Below, piece after piece: positions 6,569 to 63,380 of a stretch of 64,000 nt of DNA. Both the position numbers and the translations under genes were made by a program. The DNA comes from Candidatus Moraniibacteriota bacterium (lineage in GTDB: Bacteria; Patescibacteriota; Minisyncoccia; Moranbacterales; GCA-2747515): contig CP065011.1 in assembly GCA_016699795.1 (NCBI GenBank), forward strand, positions 947,449 to 1,011,448. Direction: 5' to 3'. The number at the start of each line of letters is the position of its first letter. Within the stretch, counting starts at the first letter, position 1. The notes under the pieces were generated by a model. It ran no database searches. It was not told where the DNA came from and was given only the letters and a program-made list of their open reading frames with translations.

Positions 6569-7594
6569 ATGAAAAAGATATTGATGTCCAAATGGTTTTG
6601 GTTCTTGGTTTTTCTTGGAGGAGGTGGCTATTGGTGGTGGGCGAGTAATCAAGAAAAAGTTCCTGAATACGAAACCGTGACAGTAGGAAGGACAACTATA
6701 ACGGAAATTATTGACCTTACGGGAGCTGTGGAGCCTGTTTCTTATGCTGATACCTCTTTTGAAATAAGTGGCCAGGTGGAAAGCGTTTCTGTTAAAATCG
6801 GAGATACGGTAAAAGAAGGGCAGATATTAGCACGCCTTGAGGGGGCGCAATATTATGCTTCACTTTCTCAAGCTGAAACAGCAGCGAGAATCGCTGAAAC
6901 TGACGAGCGTCTTGCTCGAACGAGAGAATTAACAGCGGGAAGAAAGTGGGATGAATTAAAACCAGAAGAACGAGAAGTCATAAAATTAAGATCTCAGCAA
7001 GCCAGACAAAATGCATCGATTGCAGCTGCTCAACTTAAAAAAATTTACTTACGATCTCCTATGGAGGGAATTGTAACAAAATTTGATTTGAAAGTTGGAG
7101 AATTTACGGGAGTAGGATCTTCCTCAGTGCGAATTACTTCGGGAAAAGATTTTCGTATTATAGCTGATATTTCGGAATCTGATATTGTACAGCTTGCAGT
7201 AGGCCAGGAAGGAACTGCAAAATTTGATTCTTTAGATGTGCGTGAAAAACAAGGCGTTGTTGTTCGGGAGATTGAACCAGAGGCCAAAATAATTCAGGGT
7301 GTAGTTTATTATACGGTTCATTTTGATTTGAAAGAACAAGATACTCGCTTAATGTCTGGAATGAGTACTGATATTGAGGTTCGTGTAGCAGAAAGTCAGC
7401 AAGCACTTTTCTTACCTTTTCGATCGGTATATGAAACAGAAAATCGTGTTTTCGTAGAAATTTTTGCTCCAGACGGTTCTATTATTGAGAAGGATATTCG
7501 TATAGGATTGAGTGATGATGAGGGAAATATTGAAATTCTTTCTGGTTTAGAAGAAGGCGATATTGTTGTTGTTCGACCGAGAAAAAGCCTTTGA
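6569..7594 (+). CDS. HlyD/MacA-family periplasmic adaptor (membrane fusion protein)
   Basis: N-terminal TM, biotinyl-lipoyl-like beta domain, coiled-coil segment; lies upstream of an ABC ATPase and FtsX permeases. Confidence 0.75.
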   Translation: MKKILMSKWFWFLVFLGGGGYWWWASNQEKVPEYETVTVGRTTITEIIDLTGAVEPVSYADTSFEISGQVESVSVKIGDTVKEGQILARLEGAQYYASLSQAETAARIAETDERLARTRELTAGRKWDELKPEEREVIKLRSQQARQNASIAAAQLKKIYLRSPMEGIVTKFDLKVGEFTGVGSSSVRITSGKDFRIIADISESDIVQLAVGQEGTAKFDSLDVREKQGVVVREIEPEAKIIQGVVYYTVHFDLKEQDTRLMSGMSTDIEVRVAESQQALFLPFRSVYETENRVFVEIFAPDGSIIEKDIRIGLSDDEGNIEILSGLEEGDIVVVRPRKSL

Positions 7595-7615
7595 TATTTT
7601 TTTGAGAAAAATTTT

Positions 7616-8410
7616 ATGGTACCCCTTATTGTTTGTGATTCTCTCGTTAAATCTTATGAGAGTGAAGGTGTAAAAACCGATGTTCTTCGAGGAATTTCGC
7701 TTTCTATAGGAAAGGGGGAATTTGTTTCTATTATGGGACCATCAGGATCGGGAAAGTCTACCCTTATGCATATATTGGGCTTATTAGAGGTTCCAACGGG
7801 GGGTCTTTATACTTTTTATGACAAAAATGTGAAAGAACTTACTGAAAATGAGGTGGCTTATTTAAGAAATCAAAATATAGGTTTTGTTTTTCAATCTTTT
7901 AATTTATTACCTCGAACAAGTGTTTTTGAAAATGTCGAACTTCCTTTGCTGTATGATATTTATGATGAAGAAGAAAAAAGTTGTGACAGAGAAATAAAAA
8001 CAATGAATCGAATAAAACGATTTTTTACGGGATCAACGAAGCAATGCCATGCTGAAAAAGTCAAGAAAGCTTTACTTTCAGTAGGAATGGATCATCGTAT
8101 GACATATCGTTCGAATCAGCTTTCTGGAGGAGAGAAGCAACGAGTAGCTATTGCTCGTGCGCTTGTAAATAATCCTGAAATTATTTTTGCTGACGAGCCC
8201 ACGGGAAATCTTGATTCCAAATCAGGTCTTCAGGTGATGCAAATTCTTCAGCAGCTCAACGATGCTGGTCATACTATTGTTTTAGTAACGCATGAAACCT
8301 ATACAGCTGAGCATGCTAAAAGAATTATTCGTATTCTTGATGGAAAAATTGAATCAGATGAAACTCTTTTAGAATGGAGAGATGCTCGGTATGAAAGTAA
8401 ATTAAAATAA
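7616..8410 (+). CDS. ABC transporter ATP-binding protein (MacB/LolD-type) with a ~30-aa Cys-containing insertion before the signature motif
   Basis: Walker [10 protein letters not shown], signature [15 protein letters not shown], Walker [13 protein letters not shown]; extra segment ...EEEKSCDRE...TKQCHAEK... that the second paralog at 38134 lacks. Confidence 0.85.
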
Positions 8411-47823: not shown

Positions 47824-47949
47824 ATATGAAAAACCGATTTTATTTTTTCCTTTGGCGAAAATGAAGATTTTTTGTTTTGAGGACTTTTTAAGTATTCCTT
47901 ATTGGTCACGAAATTTTCAAATTTTTGGAGGAAATAATTTTTTAGAGAG

Positions 47950-48023
47950 TACCAGAGGTGAGATTTGAACTCACGACCCCAGGCTTATGAGTCCTGTGCT
48001 CTAACCAACTGAGCTACCCTGGC
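47950..48023 (-). tRNA. tRNA with anticodon CAT, elongator-type (Met; Ile2/lysidine cannot be excluded)
   Basis: Reverse complement GCCAGGGTAGCTCAGTTGGTTAGAGCACAGGACTCATAAGCCTGGGGTCGTGAGTTCAAATCTCACCTCTGGTA folds as a cloverleaf: D stem GCTC/GAGC, T stem GTGAG/CTCAC, TTCAAAT loop, U33-CAU-A37; pyrimidine11-purine24. Confidence 0.8.
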
Positions 48024-48039
48024 AAAATTTTAAGAATAG

Positions 48040-48113
48040 TTGCGGGGGTAGGATTCGAACCTACGACCTGGTGGTTATGAGCCACCCGAGCTGCCTGACT
48101 GCTCTACCCCGCA
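48040..48113 (-). tRNA. tRNA with anticodon CAT, initiator-like (fMet)
   Basis: Reverse complement TGCGGGGTAGAGCAGTCAGGCAGCTCGGGTGGCTCATAACCACCAGGTCGTAGGTTCGAATCCTACCCCCGCAA; perfect stems; A11:U24 pair in the D stem, an initiator hallmark; weak 1:72 pair (U-A); two G-C pairs at the base of the anticodon stem. Confidence 0.75.
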
Positions 48114-56239: not shown

Positions 56240-56854
56240 TTATGAAACACTTATTTGAGTAAGAAATTCCTTTATAGTTTCATTAGAAGTTTTAAATTCT
56301 GGAAGATAGGTTACAGACTCTGTATAATCAATATCTTCAAAGTAACAAAGTTGTTCACGAAGTATTTTTTCATTAATTTCATTTCCAAATATTTTTTGAG
56401 CTTTTGCTATTATCTCATAAAGGGAATGAAAGTTTCGAAGAATAAAATACATATCAACATAGTCTTTCCATTTAGCTCGACGTCCCAATGCATAGAGTTT
56501 CATAGCACCGAGAGTCAAAAGATCAGGAAGATGTATACCATGTTGAAATTCGTTTAAAAATTCAATTGGATATGGGTAATAAAGGAATGTGATTTGAACA
56601 TTTTGAGCAAGAAATGTAAGTTCATTTTTATCATTTCGATACATTCTTTCTATAGGAGAAAATTTTTTGAATTTTGTAAGAATCTTTTCACCATTAAAAT
56701 CTTCGTTATGAGTAAAAAGATCAAAATCAATAGATTCTCTATGTCCTATATGGAGAGCAATAGCTGTTCCTCCGACCAAACCAAAATCAGGAGAAAATTT
56801 TCCAAGAAAAGGAAGAAGTGATGATTGTTTATTGTTGAGGATTTCTTGGTGCAT
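56240..56854 (-). CDS. AbiEii/DUF1814-like nucleotidyltransferase (type IV TA toxin family)
   Basis: FGLVGGTAIALHIGHRESIDFDLFT matches the NTase-fold motif hGG.A....HR.S.D.D typical of AbiEii toxins; 204 aa. Confidence 0.6.
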   Translation of the reverse strand: MHQEILNNKQSSLLPFLGKFSPDFGLVGGTAIALHIGHRESIDFDLFTHNEDFNGEKILTKFKKFSPIERMYRNDKNELTFLAQNVQITFLYYPYPIEFLNEFQHGIHLPDLLTLGAMKLYALGRRAKWKDYVDMYFILRNFHSLYEIIAKAQKIFGNEINEKILREQLCYFEDIDYTESVTYLPEFKTSNETIKEFLTQISVS

Positions 56855-57155
56855 GAGCTTTAAAATAAAGAGTGAAAAAATGTTTTGTTTTCAGATGATA
56901 ATTAGATCGTTCGTGCTCAATTTGTGAGTGAAAAATCGAGGAAATTTTTTCTATGCCTAAAATAGAAATGAGCTTTTGCACATCATCCCAATTTCCATAA
57001 TTAAGAGTAGCTTCTACAATAGATTCGACTGAGAGCTGTCCTGGATTTTTTGTCCACCAGACAAAATGAGATCTTTGTATGATAAATGTTTGAATATCCA
57101 TAGAGAAATGATACCATTTTTGAATAACTTTGTCGAGTAAAAAAGAACAATCCAA
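56829..57155 (-). CDS. Small ORF overlapping the 5' end of the AbiEii-like gene, a candidate cognate partner/antitoxin
   Basis: 108-aa ORF immediately upstream on the same strand with a 26-nt overlap; no recognisable domain and much shorter than typical AbiEi. Confidence 0.3.
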   Translation of the reverse strand: MDCSFLLDKVIQKWYHFSMDIQTFIIQRSHFVWWTKNPGQLSVESIVEATLNYGNWDDVQKLISILGIEKISSIFHSQIEHERSNYHLKTKHFFTLYFKAHAPRNPQQ

Positions 57156-57224
57156 ACGAAAAAAGATGACATAAAATCCGAATATATGGTATTCTCTTGA
57201 TATAAAAAAATTTTATATCTCTCT

Positions 57225-58172
57225 ATGAACAAAAAAATTCTCATAACGGGTGGAGCAGGATTTATCGGTTCTCATCTTATAAAACGACTTTTACATGAGG
57301 GTCATGAGGTTCTCTGTGTTGATAATTTTTTCACGGGAAATAAAGATAATATATTACCCTTTCTCGACAATCCTCGCTTCGAACTTATGCGTCATGACGT
57401 AACATTTCCCCTTTATGTAGAAGTGGATGAAATTTACAATCTTGCATGTCCCGCATCTCCCATTCATTATCAATTTGATCCTGTACAAACGACCAAAACT
57501 TCCGTACATGGTGCTATTAATATGTTAGGACTTGCCAAGAGAACTCAGGCGAAAATTCTACAAGCATCCACAAGTGAAGTGTACGGAGATCCTGAGGTGC
57601 ACCCTCAAGACGAAACCTATTGGGGGAGGGTAAATCCTGTTGGTATTCGATCTTGTTATGATGAAGGAAAACGTTGTGCGGAGACACTTTTTTTCGATTA
57701 TTTTCGTCAGCATCATCTTCCTATACGAGTAATAAGAATTTTCAATACATACGGACCCAATATGCATCCCCGAGATGGAAGAGTTGTTTCAAACTTTATC
57801 GTACAAGCATTAAAAAATGAAGATATAACCATTTATGGAAATGGGGAACAAACGAGAAGTTTTCAATACGTGGATGATCTTATAGAAGGTATGGTGCGAA
57901 TGATGGAAAATAAAAAAGATTTCACTGGTCCTGTAAATATAGGGAATCCGAAAGAATTTACTATGAAACAACTTGCTGAAATAATTCTTCGGCTTATTCC
58001 TGAAAGTAAAAGTACTCTTGTATATAAACCTCTCCCTCAAGATGATCCTAGACAACGAAAACCCGATATAACCCTTGCGAAAAAAATGCTCGACTGGGAA
58101 CCAAAAATAGATCTTGAAAAAGGCCTTATACAAACCATTGAATATTTTCGAGGAAAAATAAAAGAATTGTAA
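57225..58172 (+). CDS. uxs: UDP-glucuronate decarboxylase / UDP-xylose synthase (SDR NAD-dependent epimerase/dehydratase)
   Basis: [10 protein letters not shown] Rossmann motif; YDEGKR catalytic YxxxK region; overall match to the UXS1-type sequence (…VDNFFTGNK…NPRFEL..HDV…). Confidence 0.88.
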
Positions 58173-58310
58173 ACGTGCAAAAATATCTCAAGTACCACAT
58201 CACCTTACTCAAACAAAATAAAAAGAGTGTTTTTTCTCTAAGTCAGATACTCTAATTTTAGAGAGAAAAATTTAAAAAAGAATTGATGAAAAATTAGCTT
58301 TACGTAAGCC

Positions 58311-58661
58311 TCAAATTTTTTCATTTAATTGATTCAAAAGAGAAGAAACAGATTTTTTGAGGTTAGGAAGATCTTTTTTGGCCGTTTCCCAAAGTATTTT
58401 TCGATCAACTTTTGCATAATCATGAACAAGAAAGTTTCTCATGCCGATCATGCTTTTATAAGGAATTTGCTCTGGATATTTTTCACGAAATTCTTGTGAA
58501 AGACGATTTGTGGCTTCACCCATAATGCCAAGTTGTCTTGCTATAGCATCTGTAAGTATTTCATCTTGACTATAATGAACAAAATCAACATTGTTCAAAT
58601 AACGTTCAACTTTTTCTATAGCTTGTAAAATATCGTATAGATGAAGTTTGTTTCTATCCAT
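58311..58661 (-). CDS. hepT: HepT (DUF86/HEPN) toxin of a HEPN-MNT pair
   Basis: HEPN Rx4-6H motif RNFLVHDY; 116 aa. Confidence 0.8.
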   Translation of the reverse strand: MDRNKLHLYDILQAIEKVERYLNNVDFVHYSQDEILTDAIARQLGIMGEATNRLSQEFREKYPEQIPYKSMIGMRNFLVHDYAKVDRKILWETAKKDLPNLKKSVSSLLNQLNEKI

Positions 58662-58956
58662 AAATTTTTTGAGCTTTAGAAAGTATGTTTTCCTTTATGT
58701 TCTCATTAAGAGCTTCTGGTGTAAGAAGATCTATTTTTTTTCCAATATTTTTTTCCATTTTACTCTGGATTTCAACGAGATCAAAAAAGCTTATCGAACT
58801 TTTGGGTTCAAATACGAAAAGAAGGTCGATATCGCTTTCATCTTTTGGACTTCCGTATGCATATGATCCAAAAAGAAAAACCTCCCGAATATCTTTTCGA
58901 TATGGAGAGTTCTTCACCTCTTTCTGAATAGTAGTAATGATATGAGATTGTGTCAT
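58654..58956 (-). CDS. mntA: MntA minimal nucleotidyltransferase (antitoxin of the HEPN-MNT pair)
   Basis: GSYAYGSPKDESDIDLLFVF NTase motif (GS...D.D); upstream of and overlapping hepT by 8 nt. Confidence 0.8.
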   Translation of the reverse strand: MTQSHIITTIQKEVKNSPYRKDIREVFLFGSYAYGSPKDESDIDLLFVFEPKSSISFFDLVEIQSKMEKNIGKKIDLLTPEALNENIKENILSKAQKIYG

Positions 58957-58990
58957 AAATTTTTCTTCTCTTTCACTTTACAGAAAAACA
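58935..58990. repeat. Direct repeat copy 1 (about 56 bp) covering the mntA start codon, RBS and promoter region
   Basis: taatgatatgagattgtgtcataaatttttcttctctttcactttacagaaaaa recurs at 59856 with 3 mismatches. Confidence 0.8.
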
Positions 58991-59175
58991 CAAGGAAAGT
59001 CCAATGAATTTTGTATATCGCAATTTTGGATTTTTTCCTTCACACAAAAAACGCGAAGTTTGTGCCTACTCATTCTCTTATGAAAGAAATGTATCACCGT
59101 ATGCATATAAAAGAGTGAAGGTCTGGCCAACCTATGTGCGATTCATACATAGTAATAAAGTTAAAATAATGTCCT

Positions 59176-59751
59176 ATGAAGTTTGATACAAAGAGTATTT
59201 TTGCTGGTTCGATTCTTACCGTTCTTGCCGGTACCGTCCTCGGAATAAGTGCGACACAAGCAGATGCTTTCTTTTCGAAAGGGGAGAAAAGTGAATCTCG
59301 AGAAGTAGTGCGAAAAGCTATCGAATCTGGGGATTACAATGCATTTCTCAAGGCTCGAGAAAATGTCTCTCGTCCTATGCACAAAGATGTCAGCGAAGAA
59401 GAATTTTTGAAGATACAGAAAATGCATACGCTCAAAAATGAGGGGAAGTTTGAAGAAGCTGACGCTTTGAGAAAAGAGCTTGGATTTCCTGAGCGAGATG
59501 GTCGTGGAGGTATGGGTAAGATGAAATCTTCTCAAGACAGACAGGCTACCTACAACGCCATGGAATCCGGAGATTTCAATGCATGGAAAGAAGTGATGGG
59601 AGATCGTCCTATAGCACAAACCATGACAGAAGAAAATTTTCAGAAACTTCGCCAAGCGCATGAAATGAAAAAGAATGGAAATCATGAGGGAGCACGTGCT
59701 CTAATGGAAGAACTTGGTATGGGTAAAGCTGGTAATGGATACCAAAGATAG
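59176..59751 (+). CDS. Secreted protein with two ~65-aa internal repeats
   Basis: Signal peptide ...VLGISATQADA; repeat units ESGDYNAFLKARE...FLKIQKMHTLKNEGKFEEADALRKELG and ESGDFNAWKEVMG...FQKLRQAHEMKKNGNHEGARALMEELG. Confidence 0.55.
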   Translation: MKFDTKSIFAGSILTVLAGTVLGISATQADAFFSKGEKSESREVVRKAIESGDYNAFLKARENVSRPMHKDVSEEEFLKIQKMHTLKNEGKFEEADALRKELGFPERDGRGGMGKMKSSQDRQATYNAMESGDFNAWKEVMGDRPIAQTMTEENFQKLRQAHEMKKNGNHEGARALMEELGMGKAGNGYQR

Positions 59752-59855
59752 AATCATCGCAATCCAAAAAATTGTGAGTTATCAGAAGACGTATCGCCAT
59801 CCGAATTTTGTGTTCGGGTGGCGAATATCGTTTTATCCTTCCTTCCCTGTATGTA

Positions 59856-59911
59856 TAATGATATGAGATTGTGTCATAAATTTTTCCTCTCTTTCACTTC
59901 ACAAAAAAATG
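59856..59911. repeat. Direct repeat copy 2, with a truncated mntA 5' remnant (MTQSHIIIHTGKEG*) on the minus strand
   Basis: Near-identical to 58935-58990; the remnant minus-strand ORF is about 59833-59877. Confidence 0.8.
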
Positions 59912-59959
59912 CAAAGAAATTCCCTTAAAGGTGTATACTTAAAAAAATAATAAAAATAT

Positions 59960-61894
59960 ATGAAAAAAATACACTGGTGGAGAATACTATGCGTTAGCGT
60001 TTTCTTTTTCTTTGGGATGCCTTTACTTGTTTGGGCCAAGTCATATACATATGAAAGTATTGATGTTGATATTGATATAAACAAAGACGCAACGATCCTT
60101 GTAAGAGAAAAGCAGGTATTTCAATTTTCTGGAGAATTTCATAAAGGCTATCGAGAAATTATCCTCAATGGAACAGACGCTATTCGAGATATAGCTGTCT
60201 ATGATGAGAGAGGGGTAAATCTTTCGTACCAAAAAAATCTTTCGCAAGAATACATACCTGGACTTGAAGGAAACTATAACTACCAAAAATCTGGAGGTTT
60301 TATGAAAATTTGGTGGTTTTTTGATGCACAAGATGAAACAAAAACATTCACTCTAGAATATACCGTCGTTGGCGCCCTTTCTTTTTTCGATGATAAAGAC
60401 GAATTGTATTGGAATATTCTTACCGATTATGATGTCGCTATTGCTTCTTCTACGGTACAAATCTCTCTTCCTGAAGAAAGTGAAATGAACACACTAAAAA
60501 TAAAAGAATACCTTCAAGGGGATGAAAGTTCTTTCTCAGAAATTCTCAATGAAAAAACAGCTCTTGCCAGTGCAACACAGCTTCAATCGGGGGCAGATTT
60601 TACCGTAGCTTTCGGATTTCCTCGGGGAATCATTGATCGTGGAGCTTATTGGGAAAGTCTCTTTTCTTTATACTGGGGATATATTCTCGGTGTTCTTATT
60701 TGGCTTATTACTCTTATTTTCTGTCTTGGATATTGGTATATGAGTGAAAAATACAATAAAGGACGAGGGACGATCATCGCCGAATACGAGCCTCCTCATC
60801 ATTTACCTCCAGCAATAGGAGAAGTTATTATGAAAGAGAAAATTTCTTCTAAGACATGGGCGTCTACCATTATAGATCTCGCTGTTCGTGGACATGTAAA
60901 AATAGAAGAAGAACCTGTACAAGCATGGATGAAATATCTTATCTTTCTTCCAGGAATAATCGGTGCTTTTTTCGTGGGGCAAATTATTTTTGTCATGATG
61001 CCTACAGAAGATGTTTTTCTGAAAATCTTGGCATTGTGTGTGTTTATAGGTATAGGAGTTATTTCTTTTACAAAAGATAAGAATAAGGGGAGATTTGAGA
61101 AAAAAGAATATAAACTTTTTCTCATAAAAGATAACGCGAAAGACATATTACGCCCATTTGAAAAAGAATTTCTCTCGGTGCTTTTTTCTGGAAGGGCTGG
61201 TGTGTTTTCAACTCGAGAAATTAAGAAAGAAGATGAACTTAAGCGACAAATGATGTATAGAAAATTTCAAGCTCTCCAAAAAAGTTTTTTTGATGAAGTG
61301 GCTCAGCTCGGTTTTCATAACCATTCCCTTAAGAAAGAATCATATGGAAAAACAGGACTTATATTTTTCTTTTTCGGTCTTTTTTTCCTCTCTTCCTTTA
61401 TAGGTTTTTGGGGATCGTGGCATTTCTTGATAGCTACTCTTTTGGGGGCATCTGCTCTTATTTCATACTTCATTTGGTTTGAAGTGAAACTCACGCCAGA
61501 AGGAAATGAAGAAAAAGAGAAATGGTTAGGATTTAAAGAATTTCTCTACAAAACAGAACGGTATCGTGTCCAAGAACTTACACCTGACATGTTTTATACA
61601 CTTCTTCCATACGCTATGATTTTTGGTATAGAGAGGCAATGGGCGAAACGTTTCGAAGGTATCGTGGTGAACAATCCTGATTGGCATACATCCCCAACAA
61701 TGTCTACCTCGGGGAGCTCTTCTTTTGTTTCGTCTGGATCTGTAGGAGCTTTTTCCGCGGGGGCGTTCTCCGCATCACTTAGCTCAAGTTTTTCATCAGC
61801 TTTTGCAAGTTCATCAGGCTCTTCAGGTGGAGCTTCTGGTGGGGGAGGATCAGCAGGTGGTGGAGGTGGAGGAGGTGGCGGTGGCGCTAGTTAA
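59960..61894 (+). CDS. DUF2207-like membrane protein with a C-terminal Gly/Ser-rich tail
   Basis: Signal peptide, about 230-aa extracytoplasmic domain, TM segments, C-terminal SSGSSGGASGGGGSAGGGGGGGGGGAS encoded by a GGN repeat tract (about 61810-61890). Confidence 0.5.
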   Translation: MKKIHWWRILCVSVFFFFGMPLLVWAKSYTYESIDVDIDINKDATILVREKQVFQFSGEFHKGYREIILNGTDAIRDIAVYDERGVNLSYQKNLSQEYIPGLEGNYNYQKSGGFMKIWWFFDAQDETKTFTLEYTVVGALSFFDDKDELYWNILTDYDVAIASSTVQISLPEESEMNTLKIKEYLQGDESSFSEILNEKTALASATQLQSGADFTVAFGFPRGIIDRGAYWESLFSLYWGYILGVLIWLITLIFCLGYWYMSEKYNKGRGTIIAEYEPPHHLPPAIGEVIMKEKISSKTWASTIIDLAVRGHVKIEEEPVQAWMKYLIFLPGIIGAFFVGQIIFVMMPTEDVFLKILALCVFIGIGVISFTKDKNKGRFEKKEYKLFLIKDNAKDILRPFEKEFLSVLFSGRAGVFSTREIKKEDELKRQMMYRKFQALQKSFFDEVAQLGFHNHSLKKESYGKTGLIFFFFGLFFLSSFIGFWGSWHFLIATLLGASALISYFIWFEVKLTPEGNEEKEKWLGFKEFLYKTERYRVQELTPDMFYTLLPYAMIFGIERQWAKRFEGIVVNNPDWHTSPTMSTSGSSSFVSSGSVGAFSAGAFSASLSSSFSSAFASSSGSSGGASGGGGSAGGGGGGGGGGAS

Positions 61895-62006
61895 AAATTA
61901 TATTTCTATTTTTCCTCTGATTTCATTCGAGAGATCACCCTCTTCATTTTTCCGTTATTTCGAGTAAGTGAGGCGAACCGAGAAATCTCTCCGAATTTGA
62001 AAAACT

Positions 62007-62049
62007 AAGAAAATCCCTCTCTACCTCTCCCTTTTCCTAAGGGAGAGAA
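62007..62049. repeat. 43-bp direct repeat copy A with embedded hairpin ctctccc-N9-gggagag
   Basis: aagaaaatccctctctacctctcccttttcctaagggagagaa; the second copy at 63339-63380 differs at one base. Confidence 0.8.
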
Positions 62050-62149: not shown

Positions 62150-62983
62150 ATGGATCGCAATTTTTTAATTACTAAAGAATACCAATCTTTTATAGAAAAG
62201 ATAAAAGAGGGTGTACAACGAGCGAGAAATAAAGCCATTCGGAGTATAAATAGTGAGCTTATTAGCCTTTATTATTTTATCGGAAAGCAAATTGTAGAAA
62301 AACAAAAAAAATCAAATTGGGGTGAAGATTTTATTGGACAGATTGAAGCTGATTTGAAAAGAATTTTTCCCGAATTAAGAGGTTTTTCTCGTCGAAATCT
62401 CAATTATATGAGAAGTTTGTATATTTTCTTTGGAAAAAATGCAAAAATGCCACAGCTTGTGGCACAAATTCCTTGGGGACATATCCGGCTTATTTTAGAT
62501 AAAATTAGAGATAAAAAAGAAGCTGAATTTTATATACAAAAGACTATTGAAAATTCTTGGTCTCGGGTTATTCTTGATCATCAGATTTCTTTGAATCTGT
62601 ATCAACGACAGGGTACGCTTGTAAGTAATTTTGATTCTACGATTAATGATCGAAATATAACTCTTATCAAAGAATCTTTTAAGGAGAATTATGTTTTGGA
62701 TTTTTTGAACTTGGAAGAATCCGCCAAAGAGCGTGATCTTGAGAATGCTCTTATTAAGAATATTACAAACTTTGTTCTTGAATTGGGTAAAGGATTCGCC
62801 TTTGTCGGCAAACAACATAAACTGGTCTTCTCTCCCTTTGCCAAAAGAGTATTACGAGTTTTTCCCTCCCTCTTCTCTCCCTTTGCCAAAAGGGAGTACC
62901 CGAGTCATCGAGGGGGAGGGATTTGTATTCCAGACATCATACTTAAGTCCCAAGAAAATCCACAAAAGTATGCGTCAATATGA
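62150..62983 (+). pseudogene. DUF1016 (YhcG-like) PD-(D/E)XK-family nuclease, C-terminal catalytic region replaced by repeat-derived sequence
   Basis: The N-terminal region matches the DUF1016 pattern (...NSELISLYYFIGKQI...WGEDFIGQIEADLKRIFPELRGFSRRNLNYMRSLY... GKGFAFVGKQHKL). It then runs into FSPFAKR-FSPFAKR, encoded by a duplicated ctctccctttgccaaaag element, and terminates without the (D/E)xK core. Confidence 0.5.
62827..62925. repeat. Cluster of short REP/MITE-like hairpin repeats inside the DUF1016 gene (2x cttctctccctttgccaaaag(g); inverted ccctccctc / gagggggaggg)
   Basis: The core ctctcccttt(g/t)cc(a/t)aa(a/g)gggag is related to the hairpin in the 43-bp flanking repeats. Confidence 0.6.
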
Positions 62984-63332
62984 TTCAAATCTCAATCAAA
63001 TAGCCAGAAAACTGAGAAAATCTATGACAGAGGCAGAGGTAAGAATGTGGCAAAGATTGAGAAAAAAACAAGTTTGTAATATTCAATTTTTTAGACAAAA
63101 AATTATTGGAAATTATATCGTTGATTTTATCGCACCATTAATACATCTTGTTATTGAAATAGACGGAGGGGGACATTTCGAAAAAGGACAGCTCATAAAG
63201 AAAGATCGTGTTCGTGAAGTTTATTTAAAGCAAAAAAATCTCTCGATTCTTCGATTTACAAATACAGAAGTGATGCAAAATATAGATGGAGTTTTTATAA
63301 GTATTTATAAGTTTATTGAGAGTAGGAATTAA
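62970..63332 (+). CDS. DUF559 (Vsr-like) endonuclease-domain protein
   Basis: MTEAEVRMWQRLRKKQ...FRRQKIIGNYIVDFIAPLIHLVIEIDGGGH...LSILRFTNTEV matches the DUF559 pattern (LW..LR....G.KFRRQ..IG.YI.DF.C....L.IE.DG..H...VLRF.N.EV); the start is the in-frame ATG at 62970. Confidence 0.65.
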   Translation: MRQYDSNLNQIARKLRKSMTEAEVRMWQRLRKKQVCNIQFFRQKIIGNYIVDFIAPLIHLVIEIDGGGHFEKGQLIKKDRVREVYLKQKNLSILRFTNTEVMQNIDGVFISIYKFIESRN

Positions 63333-63338
63333 ACTCCA

Positions 63339-63380
63339 AGAAAATCCCTCTCCACCTCTCCCTTTTCCTAAGGGAGAGAA
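63339..63380. repeat. 43-bp direct repeat copy B
   Basis: aagaaaatccctctccacctctcccttttcctaagggagagaa. Confidence 0.8.

Follow-up and report, generated by a model that had tools for sequence, protein, structure and literature searches.

The window analysed here, a 64,000-nucleotide (nt) stretch of a Candidatus Moraniibacteriota bacterium (assembly GCA_016699795.1, contig CP065011.1, forward-strand positions 947,449 to 1,011,448), carries a minus-strand HepT/MntA toxin–antitoxin (TA) cassette whose promoter-side end occurs a second time as an isolated fragment. The working copy of this 68-nt direct repeat, R1 (58935–59002, minus strand), lies at the start of the antitoxin gene mntA. The orphan copy, R2 (59856–59923, minus strand), lies on the far side of a plus-strand gene, S, for a predicted exported protein, and just before a DUF2207 membrane protein gene, D. 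We favour, with a probability of about 0.55, the interpretation that R2 is a stub, the truncated remainder of a second cassette copy or allele. The TA cassette looks like the mobile piece of the locus and S like the resident gene, because S adjoins the same upstream gene, E, in relatives, and because one and the same cassette edge is seen against three unrelated flanks.

The direct repeat and the cassette to which it belongs

The repeat search returned R1 and R2 as a two-copy direct repeat (collectively R) of 68 nt, 90% identical (61/68), with a start-to-start spacing of 921 nt and a perfect core formed by the first 31 nt of each copy. The sequence-only reading that preceded this work had described a 56-bp repeat about 920 bp apart; that description holds, the 56-nt core with its 3 mismatches forming part of the longer match. 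When up to three mismatches were allowed, the 31-mer and the adjoining 22-mer each occurred twice in the window, and none of 100 dinucleotide-preserving shuffles yielded two matches. A repeat scan of the whole window gave no third copy, and degenerate patterns of R had no match in genome contigs, in metagenome contigs (two scans) or in viral contigs. No Rfam family was recognised between 57.9 and 60.3 kb, and the folding of R1 and R2 on both DNA strands gave no structure in excess of that in shuffled sequences (z −0.26 to +1.43).

R1 comprises 46 nt 5′ of the mntA ATG at 58956 and the first 22 nt of the coding sequence, covering the putative promoter, the ribosome-binding site (RBS) and the first seven codons. 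The earlier view that this region had been duplicated, with the first copy holding the real start of mntA, is upheld, R1 overlapping that ATG, as is its view of the second copy as a remnant: translation from the ATG of R2 gives MTQSHIIIHTGKEG*, an open reading frame (ORF) of 14 codons running from 59877 down to 59833. In R1, a putative promoter can be read by eye as a −35 hexamer TGGACT, a 17-nt spacer and a −10 hexamer TAAAGT, followed by a purine-rich RBS and the ATG. The same layout (TGGACT, 17 nt, TACAGT) is present in a related cassette on contig L012. A consensus promoter scan did not flag the promoter in R; we infer from the sequence that R constitutes a minimal promoter. The predicted hexamers of R2, GGAATT at −35 and TGAAGT at −10, are both degraded.

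Seven of the 68 aligned positions separate the two copies. Polarised against L012 as outgroup, four of these changes are specific to R2 and two to R1, so that each copy has diverged from a shared ancestor. The predicted −35 hexamer and position 2 of the predicted −10 hexamer account for two of the four changes in R2. Because both hexamers have been hit in this way R2 is probably inert now, which agrees with the picture of a non-functional stub in decay. The distribution of the differences is itself uneven: the 37 nt on the promoter side contain all seven, and the 31 nt across the start codon are free of them. Under uniform mismatches such a skew has a chance of about 0.011, for a split that was picked post hoc. 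It is unexpected for a functionless stub, and gene conversion or chance are possible causes.

The left boundary of R2 is sharp, and no other fragment of mntA or hepT adjoins it. A boundary blurred by gradual decay was considered and rejected, since the homology left of R2 into mntA codons 8–17 amounts to about 42% identity, no better than expected from composition. The left flank of R2 also matches the sequence right after the hepT stop codon at 7 of 9 positions, which is too short a match to be of use.

The intact cassette contains two minus-strand genes. The antitoxin gene mntA (58654–58956) encodes a minimal nucleotidyltransferase of 100 residues, identical over its whole length to QQS61151.1, with the motif GSYAYGSPKDESDID (GSx10DxD). 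Its product scores above cutoff against Pfam Polbeta (56.3 bits) and NTP_transf_2 (52.6 bits) and under the cutoff of 60 bits against NCBIfam MntA_antitoxin (49.3 bits). The toxin gene hepT (58311–58661) encodes a HEPN RNase of 116 residues with the motif RNFLVH (Rx4H) followed by DY, so that a Tyr stands two positions beyond the His of the motif (HDY). It scores 92.3 bits against Pfam HepT-like (cutoff 23.5) and 47.4 bits against NCBIfam HepT_toxin, again under a cutoff of 60. The two genes form an operon, mntA upstream of hepT, translationally coupled by an 8-nt overlap, and the arrangement is the same in L012–L017 and in L025. By domain content, motifs and operon structure we assign the pair to the HEPN/MNT (type VII) modules, at scores below the strict equivalog level.

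In type VII systems MntA AMPylates a Tyr near the HepT active site and so neutralises the RNase toxin (PMC13000451), and the modules occur in mobile or variable regions (PMC13000451). By homology, the MntA of the window would AMPylate and neutralise its HepT in the same manner. Compared with characterised examples such as SO_3165/SO_3166 of Shewanella oneidensis, the module of the window is alike in the order and overlap of mntA and hepT, in the GSx10DxD and Rx4H motifs and in the position of the Tyr two residues after the His. It differs in that the proteins are minimal (100 and 116 residues) and below the NCBIfam cutoffs, and in having a 68-nt orphan copy of its 5′ end nearby.

The cassette can be delimited, from the predicted −35 hexamer to the end of hepT, by homology to relatives in another context. 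Positions 58327–59004 (minus strand) are 78.2% identical over 679 nt to L012–L017, in which the cassette lies beside an ABC transporter, a context unlike that in the window; the nearest relative of MntA, at 75% amino acid identity, is found in this ABC-transporter context. The homology to L012 spans hepT, mntA and the 46 nt upstream, and goes no further than 59004, the right end of R1; in the alignment it starts at TTGGACTTTC. On the coding strand the same edge, TGGACTTTC, is thus seen against three unrelated flanks, namely at R1 facing S, at R2 facing D, and in L012. The cassette of L025, which is more distant (54% amino acid identity), contains no alignable R.

Relatives and the origin of the orphan copy

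Homologues of S are few, the nearest being 92% identical in protein sequence. This nearest homologue belongs to a sister lineage represented by metagenome contigs, of which 12 of the 23 on record were retrieved. In all 12, E is followed directly by S across a 127-nt spacer with no HepT/MntA genes; S in this lineage has no copy of R beside it. The wider gene order, a 107-residue gene, E, S and a 238-residue gene, is common to both lineages, and the extra DNA in the window relative to the sister lineage, which includes the TA genes, extends from 58173 to approximately 59043. The sequence-only reading had regarded the secreted-protein gene as the insert and had suggested looking in relatives for its variable presence between the repeats. 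The comparison does not support S as the insert: S is present without R or the TA genes, and the cassette is found in another context (L012–L017). Exact-protein look-ups with the S, MntA and D proteins of the window gave no indexed contig.

On the other side of R2, the right end of the repeat coincides with the cassette edge to within 2 nt, and homology to relatives of D begins about 2–5 nt further on (blastn; at 59928 for L018 and L019, at 59925 for L020). Relatives of D at 77–82% amino acid identity have different left neighbours in every case, and no TA cassette was found 5′ of D in relatives of 82%, 77% or 59% amino acid identity. A scan of genome contigs with the D protein gave no relatives. 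A microhomology of 8–9 nt, GAAAGTCC / GAAATTTCC, links the cassette edge to the native upstream region of D in L018, L019 and L020.

In the order of events that we infer, a cassette would once have sat between S and D, in the same orientation as the copy at R1, its sister copy or allele being the one that lies between E and S. The D-side copy would have lost everything from mntA codon 8 through hepT, through a deletion or else through a one-sided recombination event, illegitimate or homology-facilitated, in what is a hypervariable island, and the loss would have been tolerated because the copy at R1 still supplies antitoxin. R2 would then not be a target-site duplication from the arrival of S. 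An edge common to three contexts is expected for the ends of a cassette, whereas it would be a coincidence for the end of a duplication caused by insertion of S. The microhomology fits an illegitimate joint between the cassette edge and the sequence upstream of D. A scan of the ORFs from 48 to 63 kb brought up no recombinase or transposase, and no terminal inverted repeats or hairpin structure could be tied to R or to the S unit.

A number of observations weigh against this reading. The deletion is deduced rather than seen, there being no rest of a second cassette beside R2, and the history requires at least three events. The arrangement is known in one genome only, with no R elsewhere in the scans. 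Moreover, S and its flanks are far closer to the sister lineage than E is. The synonymous divergence of S is low (pS 0.31, dS 0.41) and its flanks are approximately 90–95% identical (the upstream flank about 95%), whereas E has a pS of 0.74 with synonymous sites saturated. S has therefore passed between the lineages more recently than E, as a mobile S unit would. Finally, the same layout of stub, intervening DNA and intact gene is found in L018, as described below, and hints at recurring insertion with duplication.

These last points would be natural had S been the piece that moved. From an ancestral order E–hepT–mntA–R–D, an S unit of about 850 nt would have entered mntA at codon 7/8, with 68 nt duplicated back to the cassette edge through staggered breaks, template switching or an R-carrying circle, so that R1 keeps the antitoxin intact and R2 is the old 5′ end. 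R1 and R2 do bracket the S unit closely; the synonymous divergence of S from the sister lineage is far below that of E, the TA genes and D from their respective relatives; the layout recurs for D in L018; and an insertion in the antitoxin gene would be survivable only with the 5′ end restored, which selects for this very arrangement. We nevertheless regard such a history as unlikely. S lies within 4–130 nt of the same E in the sister lineage, and independent landings at one place would be rare in a 1.2-Mb genome, while two chance coincidences would be needed at the right end of the duplication, one with the cassette edge as defined by L012 and one with the point where the D unit begins. The scanned ORFs include no transposase or integrase, no terminal inverted repeats were found, and we know of no transposition mechanism that gives a 68-nt target duplication. 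Nor do the features resemble those of a transposon between target-site duplications, the repeat being 68 nt long and 90% identical, the inverted repeats unconvincing and S without a Pfam family. There is also a small chance that no second cassette ever existed and that only the 68 nt were copied, as templated filler, when D was joined to S, repair synthesis on R1 having switched to the D upstream sequence at GAAAGTCC / GAAATTTCC. In favour of this, R2 is sharply bounded on either side with nothing else of a cassette left, the microhomology is found in L018, L019 and L020, and the template lies 921 nt away. That the copying ended right at the natural edge of the cassette would be a coincidence, which the microhomology explains in part, and the 10% divergence makes the event an old one; to our knowledge few templated insertions of this size have been documented in bacteria.

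Recombination at R itself, as at an att or attC site, seems to us very unlikely. Two cassettes, one running from the spacer next to E through hepT and mntA to R1 and the other from S to R2, would have been captured or exchanged by a recombinase acting in trans. This would account for two consecutive units each ending in R, for the perfectly conserved 31-nt core and for the identical cassette edge in three contexts, and integrons typically carry TA genes and genes for small secreted proteins. The locus indeed resembles an integron array in its small promoter-proximal units, its TA and secreted cargo and its similar repeats of about 60–70 nt. The attC hairpin, however, is an imperfect R″–L″/L′–R′ structure, and an attC-like fold of R was rejected because neither copy exceeds shuffled sequence in structure (z −0.26 to +1.43). 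There are two copies of R in 64 kb, S lacks R in the sister lineage, no integrase is encoded among the scanned ORFs, and the repeat consists of a promoter and start codon, an overlap that explains its conservation without a role in recombination. Gene ends are also duplicated at the integration sites of mobile elements, as with phage 21 and e14 in icd and with elements in tRNA genes. The window is similar to these in having an intact gene end, intervening DNA and a displaced, imperfect direct copy tens of nt long; it differs in that no integrase lies between or near the repeats, and S, which stands beside E without R in relatives, is a resident neighbour and not foreign cargo. The suggestion in the sequence-only reading of a recombination or duplication event at the HEPN/MNT locus is thus retained in the form of a relic of a second TA module, and a cassette exchange site becomes a minority view. 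The same reading had allowed for an assembly artefact. The source is indeed a metagenome-assembled genome (MAG), and no independent assembly of the arrangement was found. However, repeats made by an assembler are normally identical, and these have seven mismatches in 68 positions; the intervening 853 nt are unique and the contig is 1.19 Mb long, so that duplicated or chimeric sequence is hardly credible as an explanation. The genome is probably one of a Nanopore-based set of activated-sludge MAGs (PMC8012365), and with data of that kind individual reads would reach across the whole 1-kb structure.

Overall, we conclude that R2 is most likely ordinary genome scarring and not part of a new system. 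If R2 is the stub of a second cassette, a redundant copy would have been lost and its promoter stub left behind. The common cassette edge in three contexts supports a bare TA unit, from promoter to stop codon, that relocates without an obvious vehicle, and the 31-nt identical core could still mediate deletion of S, which predicts a polymorphism in the population. The interest of the locus is modest: it documents a minimal HepT/MntA cassette in Candidatus Moraniibacteriota, within the Candidate Phyla Radiation, and is of use as an example of gene flux in reduced genomes.

A 5′-end stub upstream of D in a relative

The contig L018 (GCA_036681025.1, JAXDEL010684745.1) contains a direct repeat of about 66 nt (64–68) at positions 6707–6774 and 7960–8027, approximately 90% identical without gaps and 97% identical with gaps. 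It consists of the region upstream of the D gene and the first nine codons, so that a stub lies 1.25 kb 5′ of intact D in the same orientation. The possibility that the stub is closer to the D allele of the window was rejected, since in gapped alignment its nearest relative, at 97%, is the D gene of L018 itself. The DNA between the stub and D is unrelated and contains a 125-residue ORF, repetitive extragenic palindromic (REP)-like repeats and a GIY-YIG gene. The layout of stub, intervening DNA and intact gene is thus like that of R2. In L018, by contrast, the stub supplies the RBS and start codon of the 125-residue ORF, which encodes a membrane protein, and the GIY-YIG gene of the intervening segment stands between REP-like repeats. 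These are 100-nt direct repeats (L018 7193–7292 and 7745–7844), 96% identical and made up of GC-rich palindromic REP-like units, CCCCACCTTCGTGGGG and CCCCCGCGTAGGCGGGGG, on either side of a 95-residue GIY-YIG nuclease gene (7423–7710). This segment may be a small mobile unit.

It is conceivable, though in our estimation quite unlikely, that stubs of about 65 nt such as those of mntA and of the L018 DUF2207 gene are footprints of recurrent, recombinase-independent insertion or exchange of gene-sized units in these reduced genomes, or else that mini-cassettes with precise edges, each running from promoter to stop codon, use R as a genuine att-like site. Candidate routes to such stubs would be homology-facilitated illegitimate recombination or template switching, either of which would regenerate the promoter and start of the interrupted gene. 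Other flanking repeats of 50–160 nt in the fetched loci were considered as gene-end stubs and rejected; they are GC-rich, REP-like dispersed elements. Pairs of such elements, 94–98% identical, occur in L001 (2187–2342 and 3384–3539) and in L021 (4491–4551 and 6953–7013), where they flank variable genes (DUF3800 and DUF2207) in otherwise AT-rich genomes.

Neighbouring genes and the surrounding island

Five proteins of the locus are identical over their whole length to the consecutive GenBank entries QQS61149–61153 from a Candidatus Moraniibacteriota MAG. The first of these is the product of E (57225–58172, plus strand; QQS61149.1), an SDR-family sugar-nucleotide epimerase/dehydratase with matches to Pfam GDP_Man_Dehyd and Epimerase. 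Window positions 57223–58150 are 78.7% identical by blastn to L001 249–1176, and the encoded proteins are 87.6% identical. The stop codon of E is separated from the TA cassette by a spacer (58173–58326) for which no counterpart was found in L001 or L012 and no blastn match in the fetched loci. Beyond the other end of the cassette, the 39 nt from 59005 to 59043 separate the cassette edge from contiguous homology with the E–S spacer of relatives and are of uncertain origin. They begin with an exact 10-mer, ATGAATTTTG, at 59004 that also matches L001 at 1209, at the start of its spacer. It is therefore ambiguous where the S unit begins on the left, contiguous homology to L001 starting at approximately 59044 and the 10-mer at 59004 matching as well.

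The S unit (59044–59836, plus strand) comprises a promoter region, the S gene and a terminator, and is common to the sister lineage at 89.5% nt identity (blastn, window 59047–59836 against L001 1203–1994). S is the only gene between R1 and R2, and no convincing inverted repeats were found at the ends of its unit. The gene itself (59176–59751, plus strand; IPN70_04690, QQS61152.1) encodes a predicted exported, all-helical protein of 191 residues. Its N-terminus, MKFDTKS followed by a hydrophobic stretch and then ATQADA, resembles a signal peptide by eye, and the protein contains two internal repeats of about 65 residues that are 37% identical (E=1e-13), in agreement with the earlier description of a plus-strand gene for a secreted protein with two 65-residue repeats. 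S matched no Pfam or NCBIfam family. The AlphaFold2 (AF2) model, with a mean pLDDT of 68, is all-helical and gave no fold match in the PDB at E<0.001. The intrinsic terminator of S (59794–59824, plus strand) consists of a 13-bp stem and a T-run, and its hairpin is kept in L001.

Upstream of S, a 31-nt element tatgcatataaaagagtgaaggtctggccaa (59100–59130) is 87% conserved 5′ of a distant homologue in L011 (3579–3609), which is 56% identical in protein sequence and follows an ECF (extracytoplasmic function) sigma factor gene and a 267-residue gene. The element matches no Rfam family and may be regulatory. An antisense ORF runs across S both in the window (59161–59685, minus strand, 174 residues) and in L001 (1317–1916, minus strand, 199 residues). 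Rather than being a gene, it probably arises as a by-product of codons rich in purines.

The D unit (59925–61897, plus strand) consists of the DUF2207 membrane protein gene (coding sequence 59960–61894), with matches to Pfam DUF2207 and DUF2207_C, together with the roughly 32 nt upstream that belong to it.

The locus as a whole lies in a hypervariable TA/defence island, with AbiE genes to the left and an interrupted DUF1016 gene, a DUF559 gene and REP-like repeats to the right. Since S is far less diverged than the adjoining E, the locus is a mosaic of segments of different ages. Directly 5′ of E, positions 56240–57155 (minus strand) hold an AbiEii-like nucleotidyltransferase toxin gene and a DUF6922-like partner. 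A homologue of the AbiEii-like gene (67.6% nt identity) lies just 3′ of a DUF2207 gene in L021, and TA modules therefore shuffle among the same neighbours across genomes. On the right, 50-nt REP-like hairpin repeats (62000–62049 and 63331–63380, 92% identical) flank a DUF1016/YhcG nuclease gene (in the stretch 62150–63332), the PDDEXK domain of which ends prematurely at approximately 62826, where it is interrupted by REP-like sequence and an ORF resembling DUF559 endonucleases (Pfam 8.4e-30). Further to the left in the window are two tandem tRNA-Met (CAT) genes (47949–48113, minus strand), 15 nt apart, and, between 52406 and 54054, diverged direct repeats of 60 nt (70% identity) and 41 nt (78% identity) with a spacing of about 1.39 kb, which suggest tandem paralogous small genes without a Pfam family.

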